Below, piece by piece: positions 992-19,880 of a stretch of DNA of 64,000 nt; within the stretch, counting starts at the first letter, position 1, and every line of letters starts with the position of its first letter. The stretch comes from Dictyostelium discoideum (lineage: Eukaryota): the NCBI GenBank assembly GCA_000004695.1, contig CM000151.3, forward strand, positions 2,912,001 to 2,976,000, written 5' to 3'. The notes under the pieces were generated by a model that ran no database searches, was not told the DNA's origin, and saw only the letters and a list, made by a program, of their open reading frames with translations. Made by a program: the position numbers and the translations under genes.

Positions 992-1031
992 CAAAGTGAA
1001 ACAAATAAAAAAAAAAAAAAGATAATACAAA

Positions 1032-1212
1032 ATGTCAACAGATGGCCAATTAAGATTTTCATTAGCTGAAAGAAAAGCAGGCTCAATGAGCACCCCAGGA
1101 GCTGGTAATTCCGTTTCTGTATCAAATCTTGAAGATTTTAATGATGCAGTTAAATCTGTCCACAAAACAGATAGTGCCACAAATTGGTTATTAGTTGGGT
1201 AATTTTATTTCT

Positions 1213-1244
<32 letters not shown>

Positions 1245-2005
1245 TAAAAAATCTCAGATATTAATTTTTTATTTTTATCTTTTTTTTCCTGTTTTTTTTT
1301 TATTTTTTAAAGTTATGATGGATCACCAGATAAAATTAAATTATTATCAACTGGTACTAAAGGTATTAATGAATTAATTGAACATTTTGATGATACATCA
1401 ATGGTTTATGCAATTCTCAGAGTAGTTGATCATGTTGATGGAATTCCAACTGATAGATTCGTTTATATTACATTTATTGGTGATAATGTTAAAGCCATTG
1501 AAAAAGCCAAATACAGTGTAAATAAAACATCAGTTACAAAATTACTTGGTCATTATAATGTTGAAATCATTGCATCATTAAAGAGTGAATTAAGTGAAAC
1601 TGAAATTATGAATTAAAAAAAATAGTTGAACAAGTTAAAACATCATCTGATCCAATTAATTGGATGTTAATTGGTTATGAAGATAAAGAAAGATTAGGTT
1701 TAGTTGGTAAAGGTACTGGTGGTCTTCAGGAGTTAGTCTCACATTTAAAGGATCAAAATGTAAACTATGGTATCGTTGCGACCACTGATGTTATCGATGG
1801 TATCGTTCAACCAAAACATGCTCAAATTACCTTTGTTGGCGTATCAGTTTCACCAATGGTTAAAGGTCGTCTAACAACTCATAGAGGTAAGATTGATGAA
1901 TTCTTTTCACCAATTCATGTTTCATTATTTTCTGAAAATCCTTCACAAGATTTAACTGATGAAATTTTAGCTCAAAAAGTTCAACAATTAAAAGGTATGA
2001 AATAA
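1032..2005 (+). CDS. Actin-binding protein with two tandem ADF-H (coactosin-like) domains. Exon 1 is 1032-1198; a GTAATT...AAAG intron spans 1199-1312; exon 2 is 1313-1616 (stop TAA at 1614-1616). The second ADF-H domain is in a different frame at 1604-2005.
   Basis: Translation reads MSTDGQLRF...TNWLLVG|YDGSPDKIKLLSTGTKG...FVYITFIGDNVKAIEKAKYSVNKTSV, a typical coactosin/Abp1-type ADF-H pattern (NW.L.GY...G.GG..EL...FI.W.G.N). A second copy (INWMLIGYEDKERLGLVGKGTGGLQELVSHL...ITFVGVSVSPMVKGRL) follows 47 nt later in frame -1. The poly-T promoter, ATG context and splice phases are consistent. The domain call is inference from motif memory. Confidence 0.55.
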
Positions 2006-2215
2006 GAGAAGAAACTTAAATAAAACAAAATTTTAGGTTTAATCAAAAGTTGTAAAATTATTAAATAAAATTCAATTTTTTTATACACAAAAGTAAAGGT
2101 TTGGGGGGTGGAGAAAATTATGAAAGTAATGTTTTTTTTTATTTTATTTTTTATTTATAGAACAAAATTAATATTGTGTTTGTTTATTTTTTTTATTTTT
2201 TTATTTTAAAATTTT

Positions 2216-4403
2216 TTAACTACCAAGTGAACCACAATCTAAATAATAATCAATTCTTTCACCACCATCTGAATCTGAATCTGAAATATCTGAATCATCG
2301 TCATTATCTTCATTACTTTGATTATTACCATTATTATGATTTTTATCATTTAATGAGGATTTCTTAACACTATTACCATGGTCACCAACTGAACCAGATT
2401 CATTACCTCTAATTGAATCATCTTCATGATCATGTTCATCATCGCTATTGAATGCTTCTTCATCATCTTCAATTGATTTATTATTATTATTTAAATTTTG
2501 TTGTTCTTCTTGTATTTGTTGCTTTTTTTGTTGTAGTTGTGGTTGTTGTTGTGATTGTTGTGGTGGTTGCTGTTGTGGTTGTTGTTGTGGTTGTTGTTGT
2601 CCCTCGTTTGGTATGGTTTTAATATTATTATTATTATTATTATTTTTACAATCATTTTCATTGTTACCATTCATAGTGGTATAATTATGATTACCAGTGG
2701 TATTATCAGTGTTATTCTTTATATTGTTATTGTAGCTGATGATGTTGTTATTGATACAACCATTAATATCACTATTTTCGGTTTCATTTTTTATATTGCA
2801 ATGATTGTCATTGCTATTCTTGTATTCATTATCGTTACTACTACTATTATTATTTTTATTGTATTCAACCTTAATTAATATATCGCTATTACTATTATTA
2901 CCATTTACAACATTACAATTATTACTACCCTCATTACCATTATTACTATTAATACTATTATTACTATTAACACTATTATCACTATTATCGTTATTATTAT
3001 CAACATTACTATTATCATTATCATTATTATTATTATCATTATCATTATTAATATTACTAATATTATTACTATTATTATTATTATTGTCATTATCATTACT
3101 ATTATTATCAACATTACTATCACCATTATTATCACCATTATTATTATTGACATTATTGTTGTTACTATTGCTATTATTATTATCTACATCGCCGGTGACG
3201 TTATTATTTCCATGAGGACTAACAGTTTTTTTTTTTTGAATTAATCTCAACATACCCTTTGATGACCAAAATTGATGTTGAATTTGTTCATATTGATTAT
3301 ATAACATATTCATTCTAAATAGTTTTTTTTTTTTTTTTTTTTTTTTAATGTTAGAAATTATTATTATTATTAAAAAAGGATCAATAATACATACTTATCA
3401 GTTTCATGATTATAATAAGATTCACCACATTGTACTTTTCTCTTTAAACAAGCAAAGATGGTGCCATGAATTGTAGCTAAAGATCTATCAATACTTGTAT
3501 TATCAATTTGTGGAATCTAAAAATATATGTATCAATATTTTAAATATAAATTGGAATATTTATTAATCAATCTTTCTATCAATCAATATTTCTATCCTTA
3601 TATATTTATATTTAAAAAACTTACCATATGTTCATCAGCGCCATGACATAAATGATCATTAATGATACGAATATTTTTAAAGTATTTTGTATATTTATTT
3701 TGATGAGGATCGAGAGTCATATATTTTGAACGAATTGCAAATCTTTCTTTATGTTTTGCTTCATTACTAATGTACATTAAAAATGGAATACAAGATGGAT
3801 GTTTCTTTACTAATCTTAGAATGAGTTTAGTATCTAAATGAACACCTTCAACAATTAATGATTCTTTTCTCTTTTCATAATGTCCAATTAAAATATCTAA
3901 TTTATTAAAAATCATTTCATTTTGTGCTTCATAACCTTGTAAAATCTATAAAATAAAATTAAAAATAAAAAGTTATTAATTATATATATATAACATTTAA
4001 AAAAAAAAAAAAAAAAAGAATTAATTACTTTTTCTTTATGTGATAATGATGGATTTGAAATGATTTCACCAGCATGATAAGTTGAAGCCCAAAGTATAGG
4101 TGATTCTTGTCTACTAATGAATTTTCTTAGTAATTGTCTAATGTTATCAGTAGAGATAACAGCAGTGAAACCGATTCTTGAGGCTAATAAAGCAGTGAGT
4201 GTTGATTTACCACAACCAGATGTACCACCCAATAAAATGGTAAAAGAATGTTTTTTATCTTGAACTTCACATGATACAGGGAAATCAATTATATATTGTG
4301 GCTTTGAATATTGATAACATGATAGTATGTGACCAATGATATAATAGAAAATATTTCTTTGAATTGATACACAATAAATTGGTGGTTGTGTTGTTGTTGT
4401 TGC

Positions 4404-4448
<45 letters not shown>

Positions 4449-5110
4449 TGATTGTTCAGTTTTTGTAATTGAATCAGTTGTAACAATTGCATTATTATTT
4501 GTAGCAGTTAATTGTTTGTTTTGTTCAATTCTACACTTTTCAAGTTGTTCAAACACTGTATTTGAAATTTGTCTTGCATGAATTGATTTACATCCCATAA
4601 ATTTCAATGTTAAATTCAAATGAAATCTTGCATATCTTTTAATTGAATCTACACAATGAAAATCTCTACAATCTTTAATTTCAAAACAATTTATATAATT
4701 ATAAATCTATATAAAAATATTTTTTAAAAAAAAAAAAAAAAATTAATTATTTTATACTTTTTTTTTTTAAAAAAAAAAAAATATATAATGAATAATTATT
4801 AAATATTTACCTCTTTAACAATTGATAAATTCTCATTGTTTTGTTGAAATTGGAATGGATAAGGTGTGGTTTTATTTGGTGTGGTTGAATATAGTTTCTT
4901 TGGTAATGGTATCAATGATGGGAATTTTGGATTTGGTTGGTGTTGTTGTTGTATATATGATTCATCTACCAAATATATATATGCCATTGTACCATCTCTA
5001 ATACAATCTACTATTGGATTACTTGGTGAATGTATGGTAGGTATATTACTATTATTGTTCAATGAAAATGAAGACACTCCATTGTTAATAATATTTGTTG
5101 TTGTTGTCAT
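2216..5110 (-). CDS. P-loop NTPase of the 2-phosphoglycerate-kinase-like family with a long Asn/Gln-rich C-terminal extension. Five-exon model: 4811-5110, 4029-4706, 3625-3945, 3395-3516, 2216-3314.
   Basis: Exon 2 carries a Walker A motif (ILLGGTSGCGKSTLTALLASRIGFTAVISTDNIRQL). Exon 3 carries LIVEGVHLDTKLI...HPSCIPFLMYISNEAKHKERF, which is 2PGK-like. All splice junctions are in phase (GTAAAT/GTAATT/GTAAGT/GTATGT donors, TAG/AAG acceptors). The last junction (donor GAT AA|GTATGT at 3394, acceptor TATTTAG|A at 3315) joins the kinase-like domain in phase to the MNMLYNQYEQ...poly-N ORF at 2216-3313. Without that splice the protein would end DKYVLLILF* at about 3370, so the alternative is two separate genes (2216-3313 and 3370-5110). 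Confidence 0.55.
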
Positions 5111-14564: not shown

Positions 14565-15414
14565 TTAAATACGAATTTTTTCATTATTTAATTCTTGTTG
14601 AGTAGCATCAATACTATTGCTATTATTATTATTAACAGGGTTACTTGAATTATTGTTATTATTATTATTATTTGTATTATTATTATTATTATTAATTGTA
14701 TTTTTATTTTCATTTATTGTAGATGATGAACGATTTTCTTCAATATATTTACAGATTTGAGTATTTATTACTTCATATAATAACTTTGGGTTAATTGGTT
14801 TTGTTACATAATCATCAACACCAGATTCTAAAAACTTTTCTTTATCACCTTTCATTGCATGAGCAGTTACAGCAATGATTGGAATATGACCACCTTCATT
14901 TGCTTCGATTTCACGAATTGCACAAGTTGCTTCTAAACCTGATAAAATTGGCATTTGAATATCCATTAATATACAATCATAAAGTATTGATTTATTTTTA
15001 CTTTCATGATAGAAATCTAAGGCTTGTTTACCATCTTTTGCAATGGTAATATCAAAACCTCTTTTAGTTAATAATGTCTTTATTAATTTTTGATTCATTG
15101 TATTATCTTCTGCTACCAATACTTTTTGTGGAATCATTTGACTACCACTAATTTCAATTCCACCGCTGCTTGTACCATTACTACTTAATAAATTAATATT
15201 ACCACTATTTCCTGATAAAATTGGTGGTGATTGGAATTGTGGTGTAGTAATTGTTGATGATGGTTGTGGTGGTGTTGTTACTCCTACTATTGTAGTTAAA
15301 CTACAATTATTATTATTATTGCTTCTTGGTGAACTAATTGGTGGTGATGTTTCAGGTGTTGAATTTGATGATTTTGATGGATCAGATGTATGATTATTAC
15401 TTGTATTTGTAGTG

Positions 15415-15503
<89 letters not shown>

Positions 15504-18455
15504 TAAAATTAAATTATTTGAATGAACAGTAGTATTATTATGTTGTTGAGATTGTTGTTGATGAATATGATGATGATGAATATGATGAAGATTTGTACTA
15601 CTTAAATTGGATTTATGTGGTGACATTCTTCCACTCAATTGTTCTAATTGTTGTTGTTGTTGTTGCTGTTGTTGTTGCTGTTTTGGTGAATATTGTTTTG
15701 GTGAATATTGTTGTTTTGGTGAATATTGTTTTGGAGAGTATTGCTGTTTTGGTGAATAACCACGTTGTGATTGTTTTGGTGATGAAGCAGATTGTAAACT
15801 TAATAATGGAACTATAACTATTTTTTTACCATTTGGAGTAACTGGATTATTATTTATAATTGTTATACTATTACCATTATTAATAATATTTGAACTGCTT
15901 TGAGTTACATTTGTTGAGGTTGAATTTGAAGAATTTGGTGTTAAACTATTAATATTATTTAAATCAGAGATATCAATTGAGTTATCTTTTAATGGTAAAA
16001 TTGGTGATAAAATTGGTTGTGTTTGTTGTTGTTGATTATTATTATTAACATTATTTGATGATATTGAAACTGGTGATGGTGTATTTGAAGATGTTAATGG
16101 AGTTGAGGATAATGAAGATGATGAAGGAGTTGAATTATTTGCACTACTATTACCACTATTGCTACCATTTGTACTGCTACCACCCCCACTACTACTACTA
16201 CTGTTGATAGGTGGTGAACTATAACCAACACCACCTCTAGGGGTACTAATTAAATTTGAATAATTTTTACCACCGTGACTTAAACTACGACCAGGTGATT
16301 TTGGTGGTGAATAAGCTGGTAAATTATTTAAACCACATTCTTTGGAAATTGGACCACGTGGTGTACAAATTGAATGAATTCTTTGAATTAAATCCATTGG
16401 ACAACTATGTTGTTTTTTAACATTTTTAGTTGAAGGTGTTGAAATTAAACTTGAACCACGACTATTATTTAAACCATTTGGAGTTTGAATATTATTATTA
16501 CTATTATTTAAACTTATACCACTATTATTATTTCCATTGGTATTATTATTTCCATTAGTATTACCAATTATATTATTAAGATTATTTGGATTATTTGATA
16601 AATTACTAAGATTATTTAAACCACTAATATTTAAATTTGAAATACCATTAAAACCAGTTGGACTTGAACTAAGAGTATTATGACTTGAAGATTTTAATGA
16701 TGTATTATTTAAAGAGGCAATGAAATTATAATAACTATTTGATGGTGTACGACTTGTTAATGGACCATTATCATTTGAATTATTATTATTATTAATACTA
16801 TTATTATTATTTAATGTACTACCATTGATATTTATATTATTCATACTATTACTTAAAGAAATACCATAATTTGTTGAATCGTTATTACCATTATCATTTG
16901 AATCTTTTTTCACTTTTTTAGTTTGAACATTTGGAAGTGATGGAATATAAATTTCATTTTTTAATCTACTAGATTCAAATAATTTAGTGGTTGAATTGAT
17001 TGAACCATTACTTGATTGTAATGAAGGTGATTTTGGTGATGGTGCTTCAACACTTTTAATTGAGAGAATGAAATGAAAAGTTGAACCTTGTGATGCTTCA
17101 CTTTCAAACCAAATTGCACCACCAAAGAATTCAATTAACTTTTTGCAAATACTTAAACCTAAACCAACACCACCTTGAACACGACTATATGAACCATCAA
17201 CTTGAAAGAATCTATCGAAAATGAAATCATGTTTATCCTCTGGTACACCAATACCACGATCTTTAATTGAAAATTTTAGATTAACAAACCCTTCACGATC
17301 TTTTTTTTTAAATTTTTCACGTTTATTAATACCACCTCCACCACCACCACTGGTATTATTATGAAATAATAAATTATTACTTATATTATTTCTTGAAGTG
17401 TTTGATGATGTATCGTCGTCGGTATCATCATCATTTTCATCAGTTTCATCATTTTCATCATCATTTTCATCATCATCATCACTATTATCTTTTTCATCTA
17501 ATTCACTAAAACCACCAACAGCTGATTCATTATCTGAAACATTAATATCTCTACCAAAATAAGAATCATTATTATCTTGATCATCATAATCACCATCGAT
17601 ACTATAATCATCATGTGAATTTAATCTACTATGAGTCTTTGAATTTGATCTAAAAGAGTCTTTATATTTTTTAAATTGATTATGAGTTAATTGTTCAACA
17701 ATGATTGAAATTGAATTATTTATATTTGAAGAATTTGAAAATTTTATTGCATTATCAATTAGATTTGAAAGGATTTGTTTTAAACGATTTTGATCACCAT
17801 AGAAATCATCGGCAATATTTGGATCGATTGAAAAGGTTAAACTAATCTTCTTTTCAATGATACGTGTATAGAAAACTTTAAATAATTGATTGAATGTATC
17901 ACGTAACTTGAATGGGAAAGGTCTAACTGCCAATGAATTTGATTCCAATGTTGTGAAATCTAAAATTTGGTGAAGTAAATCCAATAGAATCTTTGACGAC
18001 TCCACAACATCATTTAACATTTCCTTTAGATTCCTTGGTGCAACATCTAAACATAAACCAACCATACCAATGATTGAATTCATTGGACTCAATAATTCAT
18101 GACTAATATTTGCCAAAAATTCACCTTTTAATTGATTAGCCCTTTGTGCCTCCTCTGTTGCATTCTTTAGTATAACTTCATTACGTTTTCTTTCAGTAAT
18201 ATCATGTAAGGCTACAAATGCACCAATGGTTTTACCATCTTTTGAAACAATCTCTTGACCACTTGCCAAAACTAAAAATTCATTATCATTTATCTTTGTT
18301 GGAATTTTAGTTGCAATTGGTATTTGTTGTGGTGATGTTATTGTTGCTGCTGCTGCTGTTGTTGATGTTGTTGCACCACCTATTCCATTTGTTGTATTTT
18401 GTTGTTGTTGTGTTTGTTGTGTTGATACTTGTGTTTGTTGTTGTTGTGAAATTGA

Positions 18456-18519
<64 letters not shown>

Positions 18520-19880
18520 GTTGTTGTTGTTGTTGTACTATAATTTTTTGATAATCTATTTTGTGATTTATTACCATTTGAACAATTTGATTGTGATCTT
18601 GGTCTATTTGATTTTGATAATGATGATTGTTGTTGATTTGAAGTTGGAGTAATTATAATTTCTTGATCATTTATAAATTCACCACTTAATGCTCTAATAA
18701 TTGGTGTACCTGATTTTTCTAAATTTATTTGTTCATATGGTGATCTATAACATTTTAAAATTTGATCTAATAATTGTTTTCTATCGGTTTTATCGTTCAA
18801 TTCTAATCCATGTAAATCTTGTGCACTCTTATTGAAATGTGTTAAATCACCATTTGAATTACATGCAACAATGCCTGCTTTTAAACAACCAATTAATGCT
18901 TCAACAAATTTACTCTCTTCTTCTAATTTATCTTTTGCTTCTTGAATTTCACTAAAATCATGACAAACTCCTAAAACTTTAAAAACTTTATCATCTTTTT
19001 TAATAATTTCACCTCTTTTTTTTTTCATTGAAAAAAAAAAAAAAAAATAAAAAAAAAAGTTTGGAAATTAATAAATAATTAATAAAAATGATAATTATAA
19101 TAATAATAATAATACAAACTTTAATTGAATATATCTAACTAAATTATCATTTTTTCTATTAATTCTTAATGGATATTCAAATGAAGAACTATTTGATTCT
19201 ATACAATTATTAATTATTGGTTGAATTTCTTGAATACCAAGTTTATTAATAAAATCATTAAAATTCAATTTTTTATTAAAATCATTTTCAATACCAATTA
19301 TTTTATAAAATTGATTAGATGCTTTAGTTGTATCATTTTGAACATTCCATTCCCAAGATCCCATGTTTGATGGTTCTGGTCTATTATATTGTCCTTTATT
19401 ACTACTATTAATATTTACAGAATTTTGATTATTTTGATTATTATTTATATTATGATTTTCAATTGATGATGATAATGGTGATTGAATAAATTTAATTTCT
19501 TCAATTGCTTCTACTAATATAAAAATTCGTTTACCTTCGTAATCTAAATAATGACTATCTTGATTTACTAATAAATTAATACTAGTATCCAAATATAATT
19601 GTCTTGCATCCATATCACTAATATGTATTGATGAATATTTAAATATCATTTGTTTTAAAATCTCTCCATTTTCGTTGGATTCTATTATATCGATGTGTTC
19701 ATGTTTTGATTTACCATTTCTAATATCATTTATTAAATTTGAATTATTAAATAATGATGTTATTGATTCAATATTTTTATATTTTTTACATGATTGATTA
19801 CCCCAAATCAATACTCTTTTATTTATATCGAATAACCAAATTGCTTGATTTAATTTTTCTAATATTTTTAAATAAATCAT
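14565..19880 (-). CDS. Hybrid sensor histidine kinase (dhk family): PAS/PAC regions, HisKA, HATPase_c and a C-terminal receiver domain. Two exons: 19120-19880 and 14565-19014; about 1736 aa.
   Basis: H-box FLANISHELLSPMNSIIGMVGL. ATPase N/G boxes LSNLIDNAIKFS...DRGIGVPEDKHDFIFDRFFQVDGSYSRVQGGVGLGLSICKKL. Receiver KVLVAEDNTMNQKLIKTLL...ILMDIQMPILSGLEATCAIRE...PIIAVTAHAMKGDKEKFLESGVDDYVTKPI. The intron is TTA AA|GTTTGT...AG|A GGT in phase 2. The ATG at 19878-19880 opens a PAS-like exon (MIYLKILEKLNQAIWLFDINKRVLIWGN...). Long poly-Asn/Gln/Ser linkers are present. Confidence 0.85.

Follow-up and report, generated by a model that had tools for sequence, protein, structure and literature searches.

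Two actin-binding ADF-H domains lie head to tail on the plus strand of a 64,000-nucleotide stretch of Dictyostelium discoideum DNA (hereafter the window), but in different reading frames. Are they parts of one gene and, if so, what has separated them? The first domain ends in ...SELSETEIMN at a TAA stop codon (1614-1616), while the second is in the -1 frame, open from 1604, and a run of eight adenines (A8, 1615-1622) is present at the frame change. All this had been read correctly from the sequence in a preliminary description of the locus, which left three explanations: a single two-domain gene disrupted by a homopolymer error at the A8 run, a recently pseudogenised tandem duplication, and ribosomal frameshifting or slippage. 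Comparison with other strains and species makes it highly probable that the frame change is due to a strain-specific deletion of 196 nucleotides (nt) from the linker between the domains, and that the locus is an ordinary broken allele.

A 196-nt deletion in the linker

The DNA alignment included the window, the genome assemblies GCA_054859355.1 (L001), GCA_054883475.1 (L002) and GCA_054859385.1 (L009), Logan contigs from six sequencing runs (L003-L008) and the D. firmibasis sequence (L010). The gene is intact in all of them except L002, which shares a single clean gap with the window; the flanks are otherwise identical. The interval from ATTATGAAT to ATAGTTGAACAAG is 8 nt long in the window and L002, 204 nt in the six Logan contigs, 207 nt in L001, 213 nt in D. 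firmibasis and 219 nt in L009. The orthologues of D. dimigraforme and D. purpureum, too, are longer than the window by about 200 nt at this place. Compared to the Logan contigs, which are the most similar intact alleles, the window is short of exactly 196 nt (3x65+1).

The left breakpoint is ATTATGAAT/AAGATT and the right one is ATCGGAAT/TAAAAAAAATAG. They share four bases, GAAT, present in one copy in the window (1610-1613, plus strand) and in two copies 196 nt apart in the intact alleles, and the exact breakpoint may lie at any position inside or bordering this tetranucleotide. Putting the 196 nt of one Logan contig (L004) back after position 1613 gives an uninterrupted open reading frame (ORF) of 351 amino acids (aa), therefore the deletion is the sole lesion. 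The lost segment corresponds to residues 157 to ~222 of the intact protein. The preliminary description was right in assuming a single disrupted gene for a two-domain actin-binding protein, as the intact ORFs of other strains and species demonstrate, but not in placing the lesion at the A8 run: its actual cause is the deletion immediately 5' of the run.

The 196 nt were lost between the two GAAT tetranucleotides, we infer by replication slippage or microhomology-mediated end joining. This loss sets the TAA directly after Asn156 and shifts domain 2 to the -1 frame, turning a conserved dictyostelid two-domain gene with an intact product of 351-356 aa into a deletion allele. The two frames around the junction read as follows. 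Frame 0 continues through ...NVEIIASLKSELSETEIMN to the premature stop (1614-1616, plus strand), which in the intact allele corresponds to the last two bases of TTA (Leu) and the first base of AAA (Lys), and then reads AAA AAA TAG. The -1 frame has a TGA at 1601-1603, is open from 1604, where it begins with NYELKKIVEQVKTSSDPINWMLIGY... (also given as NYELKKIVEQVKTSSDPINWMLIGYEDKE...), and ends at the TAA of 2003-2005.

The locus is an ordinary microhomology-flanked deletion allele. It is like other such alleles and pseudogenes in having a direct repeat (here GAAT) at both breakpoints with one copy kept, a length that is not a multiple of three, an immediate premature stop and undecayed coding sequence downstream. 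No unusual difference sets it apart from this category.

The gene is intact in other strains and species

A hypothetical fusion of the two window halves was used as the query in homology searches. Proteins of 352-356 aa were found in other D. discoideum assemblies (P0001, P0014), "D. cf. discoideum" (P0015), D. firmibasis (P0003) and D. dimigraforme (P0004), while Tieghemostelium, Acytostelium and Cavenderia have proteins of 334-343 aa containing both domains. In the intact proteins EIMN is followed by KIQDASGSRNR (with D160, S162, G163 and R165 invariant), a disordered linker, about 50 residues long and rich in Ser/Thr, ...NTKSVGLTFNNESELK(Q/K)IVEQVKT... and domain 2. Since the domains are joined in all of these relatives, this is one old two-domain gene, whose middle is missing from the window.

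The continuous ORF with two ADF-H domains for which a comparison of orthologues had been advised is present, as a protein or an ORF, in D. firmibasis, D. dimigraforme, D. purpureum and more distant dictyostelids. In the D. purpureum genome a single ORF (L011, positions 491-1438, GL871119.1) runs through the linker (...SRNRTGDSKPTTTHISSNTN...SVGLTFKNESEIRAAIQKVKN...). The annotated D. purpureum protein XP_003289527.1 (P0005) is only 300 aa long, as the coding linker was wrongly spliced out as an intron.

Transcript structure and the putative 32-nt intron

One of the Logan contigs (L003, run SRR24091723) is an intron-less sequence of 1139 nt containing the full 351-aa ORF without interruption. 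Therefore, an intact two-domain mRNA is expressed by a strain whose allele is intact. The contig aligns to window positions 999-1195, 1312-1613 and 1610-2052, which means that the gene has a single intron (1199-1312), that the linker is exonic, and that both ends of a 32-nt "intron" discussed below are exonic as well.

According to this alignment, the 5' untranslated region covers at least 999-1031 on the plus strand. Exon 1 (1032-1198) starts with the ATG at 1032 and codes for an N-terminal tail and for the first part of ADF-H domain 1 (...TNWLLVG); its translation is identical to the N-termini of P0001 and P0002, and its splicing is confirmed by the contig. The sole genuine intron (114 nt, GTAATT...AAAG, with GT..AG boundaries) is absent from the contig, where the alignment jumps from 1195 to 1312. 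Exon 2 to the left of the deletion (1313-1613) encodes the remainder of domain 1 up to ...SELSETEIMN (PF00241, E-value 2e-24), being identical in L002 and nearly identical in all intact alleles. The 3' untranslated region includes at least 2006-2052, as the contig aligns through 2052, with an AATAAA hexamer at 2019-2024.

Among the alternatives to a deletion, the one that survives best is still very improbable: GT at 1594 and AG at 1625 could delimit a real 32-nt intron (1594-1625, plus strand), the removal of which joins both frames. The product would be the 275-aa protein KAM9952279.1 (P0002, ...SEL/IEQVKT...), annotated at 3001-3970 of L002, which corresponds to 1032-2005 of the window. The boundary dinucleotides do exist, their use restores the frame, and it was this model that the annotation pipeline gave for L002. 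However, both boundaries and the whole left part of this stretch are retained in the L003 transcript, which represents the intact rather than the deletion allele. The stretch encodes SETEIMN, conserved in all orthologues as a part of the last helix of domain 1. Its donor site, GTGAAA, differs from the GTAATT of the real donor, and its 32 nt compare poorly to 114 nt. A length of 32 nt is well below the usual minima for spliceosomal introns outside ciliates and nucleomorphs; in the literature we found no source for the minimum intron length in Dictyostelium. Homology-guided annotators commonly invent micro-introns to bridge frameshifts, and the intron of KAM9952279.1 is very probably an annotation artefact. 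The earlier judgement that this GT/AG pair makes no plausible intron agrees with the exonic state of the stretch in the contig and with the conservation of the residues it encodes.

If a single-domain coactosin gene had recently been duplicated in tandem and its second copy pseudogenised, the locus would be two former genes instead of a single gene with a deletion. Although the two similar domains do lie head to tail and the second one has no start codon, we find this explanation hard to credit: a single ORF or protein holds both domains in all other strains and species examined, even in distant dictyostelids, both are present on one mRNA, and the two-domain architecture occurs in hundreds of distant relatives. 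Of the three original explanations it nevertheless comes nearest, as its "recent" part is correct with respect to the disruption, but not to the two-domain architecture, which is common across Dictyostelia and beyond.

The A8 run and the reality of the deletion

The A8 run (1615-1622, plus strand) is native coding sequence of an A8-type allele (..TTA AAA AAA ATA.., coding for L K K I). The six Logan contigs have the identical TTAAAAAAAATAG in frame and with the linker intact, encoding L-K-K-I (...ESELKKIVEQ... in P0016 and P0017). L001, L009 and D. firmibasis have AAAACAAA (K Q) instead, so the run reflects a Q/K polymorphism. Its length is the same in eight sequences (the window, L002 and the six intact-allele contigs). 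The frame-0 stop consists of T1614 and the first two adenines of the run and persists for any run length of at least two; this rules out a fusion of the domains through either a homopolymer miscount or slippage during transcription.

That a miscounted adenine homopolymer or a collapsed assembly splits a really intact two-domain ORF is no more credible than the duplication. The T-runs near 931 and 1224 are indeed not of equal length in the window and in L002, showing that such runs are error-prone or polymorphic in this genome. But no addition or removal of an adenine opens frame 0, the repair of the ORF takes 196 nt and not one, and the identical junction is present in a second, non-identical assembly. 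Over 5 kb, L002 and the window are 99.46% identical, with three substitutions (262, 479 and 482, all non-coding) and three homopolymer-length gaps (24 nt). The length differences are all located in long T homopolymers: 20 nt at 931-950, upstream of the start codon, and 1+3 nt at 1224-1228, within the intron. As the two sequences are nearly but not completely identical, L002 is a different assembly of a very close strain. Since the junction occurs in two independent assemblies, and a 4-nt repeat is unable to cause an assembly collapse, the deletion is real and not an artefact, which we state with high confidence. The inspection of an independent assembly advised earlier contradicts the artefact, as L002 repeats both the deletion and the A8 run.

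The weakest alternative is a fused two-domain protein made by programmed -1 ribosomal frameshifting, or by slippage of transcription, at the A-run. It hardly deserves consideration: in frame 0, A AAA AAA (1616-1622) has the formal pattern of an X XXY YYZ heptamer, from which a -1 slip enters the frame of domain 2, but its first base is the last base of the TAA, so that two rare events, UAA readthrough and a slip, would be needed, there is no other slippery heptamer upstream of the stop within 1604-1613, the sole interval where a shift could work, the RNA fold of 1623-1722 provides no stimulatory structure (minimum free energy -13.8 kcal/mol, z = -0.05 against shuffled sequences), slippage in the transcript does not remove the TAA, and the juxtaposition of the frames is an accident of the recent deletion, limited to the deletion allele and so not an evolved recoding site, other strains and species reading the A-run or AAAACAAA as in-frame coding sequence. 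No conservation of the overlapping arrangement was found, all other strains and species examined having one continuous ORF. Homopolymer error and slippage are therefore effectively excluded.

Strain origin of the deletion allele

De novo Nanopore and Illumina assemblies were published for D. discoideum AX2-214, CR116C, OT3A, M4B, S6B and for other species (PMC12745789, BioProject PRJNA1300491). CR116C, OT3A, M4B and S6B have all diverged from AX4, while AX2 and AX4 are 99.5% identical at another locus (PMC12745789). Judging by the strain list, species names and dates, the series of accessions that includes L001, L002 and L009 seems to come from this project, in which AX2-214 is the sole strain close to AX4. 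L002 is thus probably AX2-214, and the window probably belongs to the AX4/NC4 lineage.

Several points weigh against a strain-specific deletion as the full account of the locus. The strain identity of both the window and L002 is deduced from such indirect data. Some of the independence between the two assemblies would be lost had the polishing or scaffolding of L002 relied on the same reference as the window, but the assemblies are described as de novo (PMC12745789). The protein collection contains no AX4 protein of D. discoideum from this locus; this gap fits either a pseudogene or missing annotation in the reference and is proof of neither. The 156-aa product described below is a prediction from the nucleotide sequence, and the L003 transcript represents the intact allele only.

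Exact look-up of the 156-, 113-, 71- and 56-aa window products, of eight further window ORFs and of a 470-aa ORF gave no match in the protein collection and no read-level contigs of the deletion allele. A literature search found no paper on a Dictyostelium coactosin-like pseudogene.

Age of the deletion and selection

Substitutions were counted by the Nei-Gojobori method. Between D. discoideum and D. firmibasis, the proportions of nonsynonymous (pN) and synonymous (pS) differences are 0.008 and 0.28 in domain 2 (ratio ~0.03), and 0.03 and 0.33 in the exon 2 part of domain 1 (ratio ~0.09). Both domains of the intact gene experience strong purifying selection. The stranded domain 2 of the window differs from that of L001 by seven synonymous and no nonsynonymous substitutions and from that of L004 by three synonymous and one nonsynonymous. 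Over window positions 1610-2646, identity to the Logan genomic contigs carrying the intact A8 allele is 98.7%, against ~93% to L001 and L009. The undecayed state of domain 2, together with the high identity to the A8 contigs, means that the deletion is recent and occurred within D. discoideum on an A8-type haplotype.

Predicted product of the deletion allele

Translation of the window predicts a 156-aa single-domain protein, comprising the N-terminal tail and ADF-H domain 1, as the product of the deletion allele. Both window domains match the Pfam family Cofilin_ADF (PF00241, cut-off 22.4 bits), domain 1 with 86 bits and domain 2 with 57.6 bits. In the structural model of the intact protein (see below), the last helix of domain 1 covers residues 151-162; it is cut at residue 156 in the predicted window product, and the invariant D160, S162, G163 and R165 are lost.

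The stranded domain 2 (IVEQVKT...QQLKGMK followed by TAA, 1622-2005 on the plus strand, PF00241, E-value 1e-15) is out of frame with domain 1. It had been described as complete, which is true by Pfam but not by comparison to orthologues, as the conserved VGLTFNNESE, corresponding to a short strand and the first residue of the first helix, is missing. The ATG at 1664 codes for the M of NWMLIGY, and the -1 frame has no other in-frame ATG ahead of the domain core; the sequence confirms that domain 2 is not an independent gene as written. It is a very young, undecayed, untranslated remnant without its own promoter or start codon. Reinitiation at ATG 1664 was considered and rejected: its product, a fragment of 113 aa, would be missing the first helix as well as the NW of the first strand.

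Structure and relatives of the intact protein

A model of P0001 made with AlphaFold2 from 12 aligned sequences has ADF-H folds, with a central mixed beta-sheet and flanking helices, at residues 29-162 and 216-350 (predicted local distance difference test scores ~85-93) and a disordered region at 166-213. Pfam recognises two Cofilin_ADF stretches in this protein (141 bits). A phmmer search against the PDB gave drebrin 5y1z (E-value 2e-11, domain 2), drebrin-like/HIP-55 1x67 (3.5e-11, domain 1), as well as coactosin-like protein and yeast Abp1 1hqz, but no twinfilin chain at E <= 0.01. Foldseek with the whole chain had full-length twinfilin 7ccc_B as the best match (12% identity), while separate domains matched coactosin-like protein, drebrin, HIP-55 and Entamoeba coactosin with template modelling (TM) scores of 0.86-0.90 and 19-30% identity; TM scores to solved ADF-H domains were 0.8-0.9. 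Coactosin-like, drebrin and Abp1 domains are all top matches with similar scores, and the original "coactosin-like" label is reasonable given these nearest solved relatives. Going by the model, the intact protein has a twinfilin-like architecture made of coactosin/drebrin-type domains. It presumably binds F-actin, and its two sites could bridge filaments or decorate them cooperatively.

Both domains share the ADF-H fold with coactosins (COTL1, D. discoideum coactosin and EhCoactosin). Human COTL1 (1vfq, 1t2l) and the Entamoeba protein (4liz) are among the best per-domain structural matches (TM 0.87-0.90, 19-25% identity), and UniRef names orthologues of the two-domain protein "Coactosin". The truncated 156-aa product would match the size of a single-domain coactosin. 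However, coactosin has one ADF-H domain in ~140-150 aa, whereas the intact orthologues of our gene have two in 334-356 aa, with a conserved motif and a long disordered linker between them. Drebrin and Abp1 (drebrin-like, HIP-55) provide the best PDB sequence matches to the individual domains, but these proteins, too, have one ADF-H domain, and the two-domain protein has no SH3 domain and no charged/helical or proline-rich region. The DASGS that follows domain 1 may resemble the ASG-type motif at the end of the drebrin and Abp1 ADF-H domains.

Twinfilin is similar in having two linker-joined ADF-H domains in ~350 aa, but the Foldseek identity is only 12-17%, and per domain it ranks below coactosin, drebrin and Abp1. 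The linker of the two-domain protein is much longer and Ser/Thr-rich. The C-terminal tail of twinfilin is its capping-protein-binding element; the two-domain protein has no such tail, its last helix ending at residue 350 of 352.

When 1.84 billion representative sequences were searched exhaustively with phmmer, 1246 relatives were obtained (129 at E <= 1e-30), many with more than two matched stretches. Nine relatives were scanned against Pfam and contain 2-7 Cofilin_ADF stretches; neither these nine nor P0001 has any other Pfam domain. The relatives (P0021-P0169) include proteins with 3, 4, 5, 6 and 7 tandem Cofilin_ADF domains, up to 1504 aa long. Five canonical ADF-H classes are listed in the gmfA paper. 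In the literature searched, we found no paper on proteins with tandem or multiple ADF-H domains other than twinfilin.

Possible significance

We put forward only tentatively, and as a joint proposal somewhat doubtful, that proteins with 2-7 tandem coactosin/drebrin-type domains and no other domain form an undescribed ADF-H class and that the AX2/AX4 lineage is a natural knock-out or hypomorph for its member. Such a class, if real, would be under purifying selection across Dictyostelia and abundant among unnamed proteins from genomes and metagenomes. A natural knock-out or hypomorph in axenic AX2/AX4 (hence probably also in NC4) would explain why the gene was never studied in the main amoeboid model of the actin cytoskeleton, and could contribute to cytoskeletal differences between laboratory and wild strains.

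A tandem ADF-H protein of the coactosin type, unstudied but widely conserved, is probably missing from the standard laboratory lineage. If the two assemblies with the deletion are indeed AX4 and AX2, these workhorse strains are without a conserved twin ADF-H protein which is expressed in at least one other strain of the D. discoideum type. The plain deletion allele also removes a candidate recoding site from consideration and exposes two faulty public gene models, KAM9952279.1 with its 32-nt pseudo-intron and XP_003289527.1 with its linker spliced out.

Other features of the window

The window has a base composition of ~20% GC and is dictyostelid DNA. The AT-rich DNA upstream of the ADF-H gene contains an imperfect direct repeat of ~170-200 nt (241-480 and 665-865), with sub-blocks 86-87% identical and spaced by ~405 nt, a duplicated intergenic or promoter segment. 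The downstream neighbour of the gene (3598-4619, minus strand) has a P-loop segment resembling 2-phosphoglycerate kinase. A word-indexed protein search with its 121-aa fragment returned only three metagenomic matches and no Dictyostelium protein. As a called 839-aa gene of L002 overlaps this position, the word index seems to miss some proteins.

A tRNA scan of the window found none. Two ORFs of 1487 and 261 aa at 14565-19880 (minus strand) code for a hybrid histidine kinase with a receiver domain and carry long Asn/Gln/Ser-rich tracts. Further ORFs of the window have long poly-N or poly-Q tracts, which are typical of D. discoideum.

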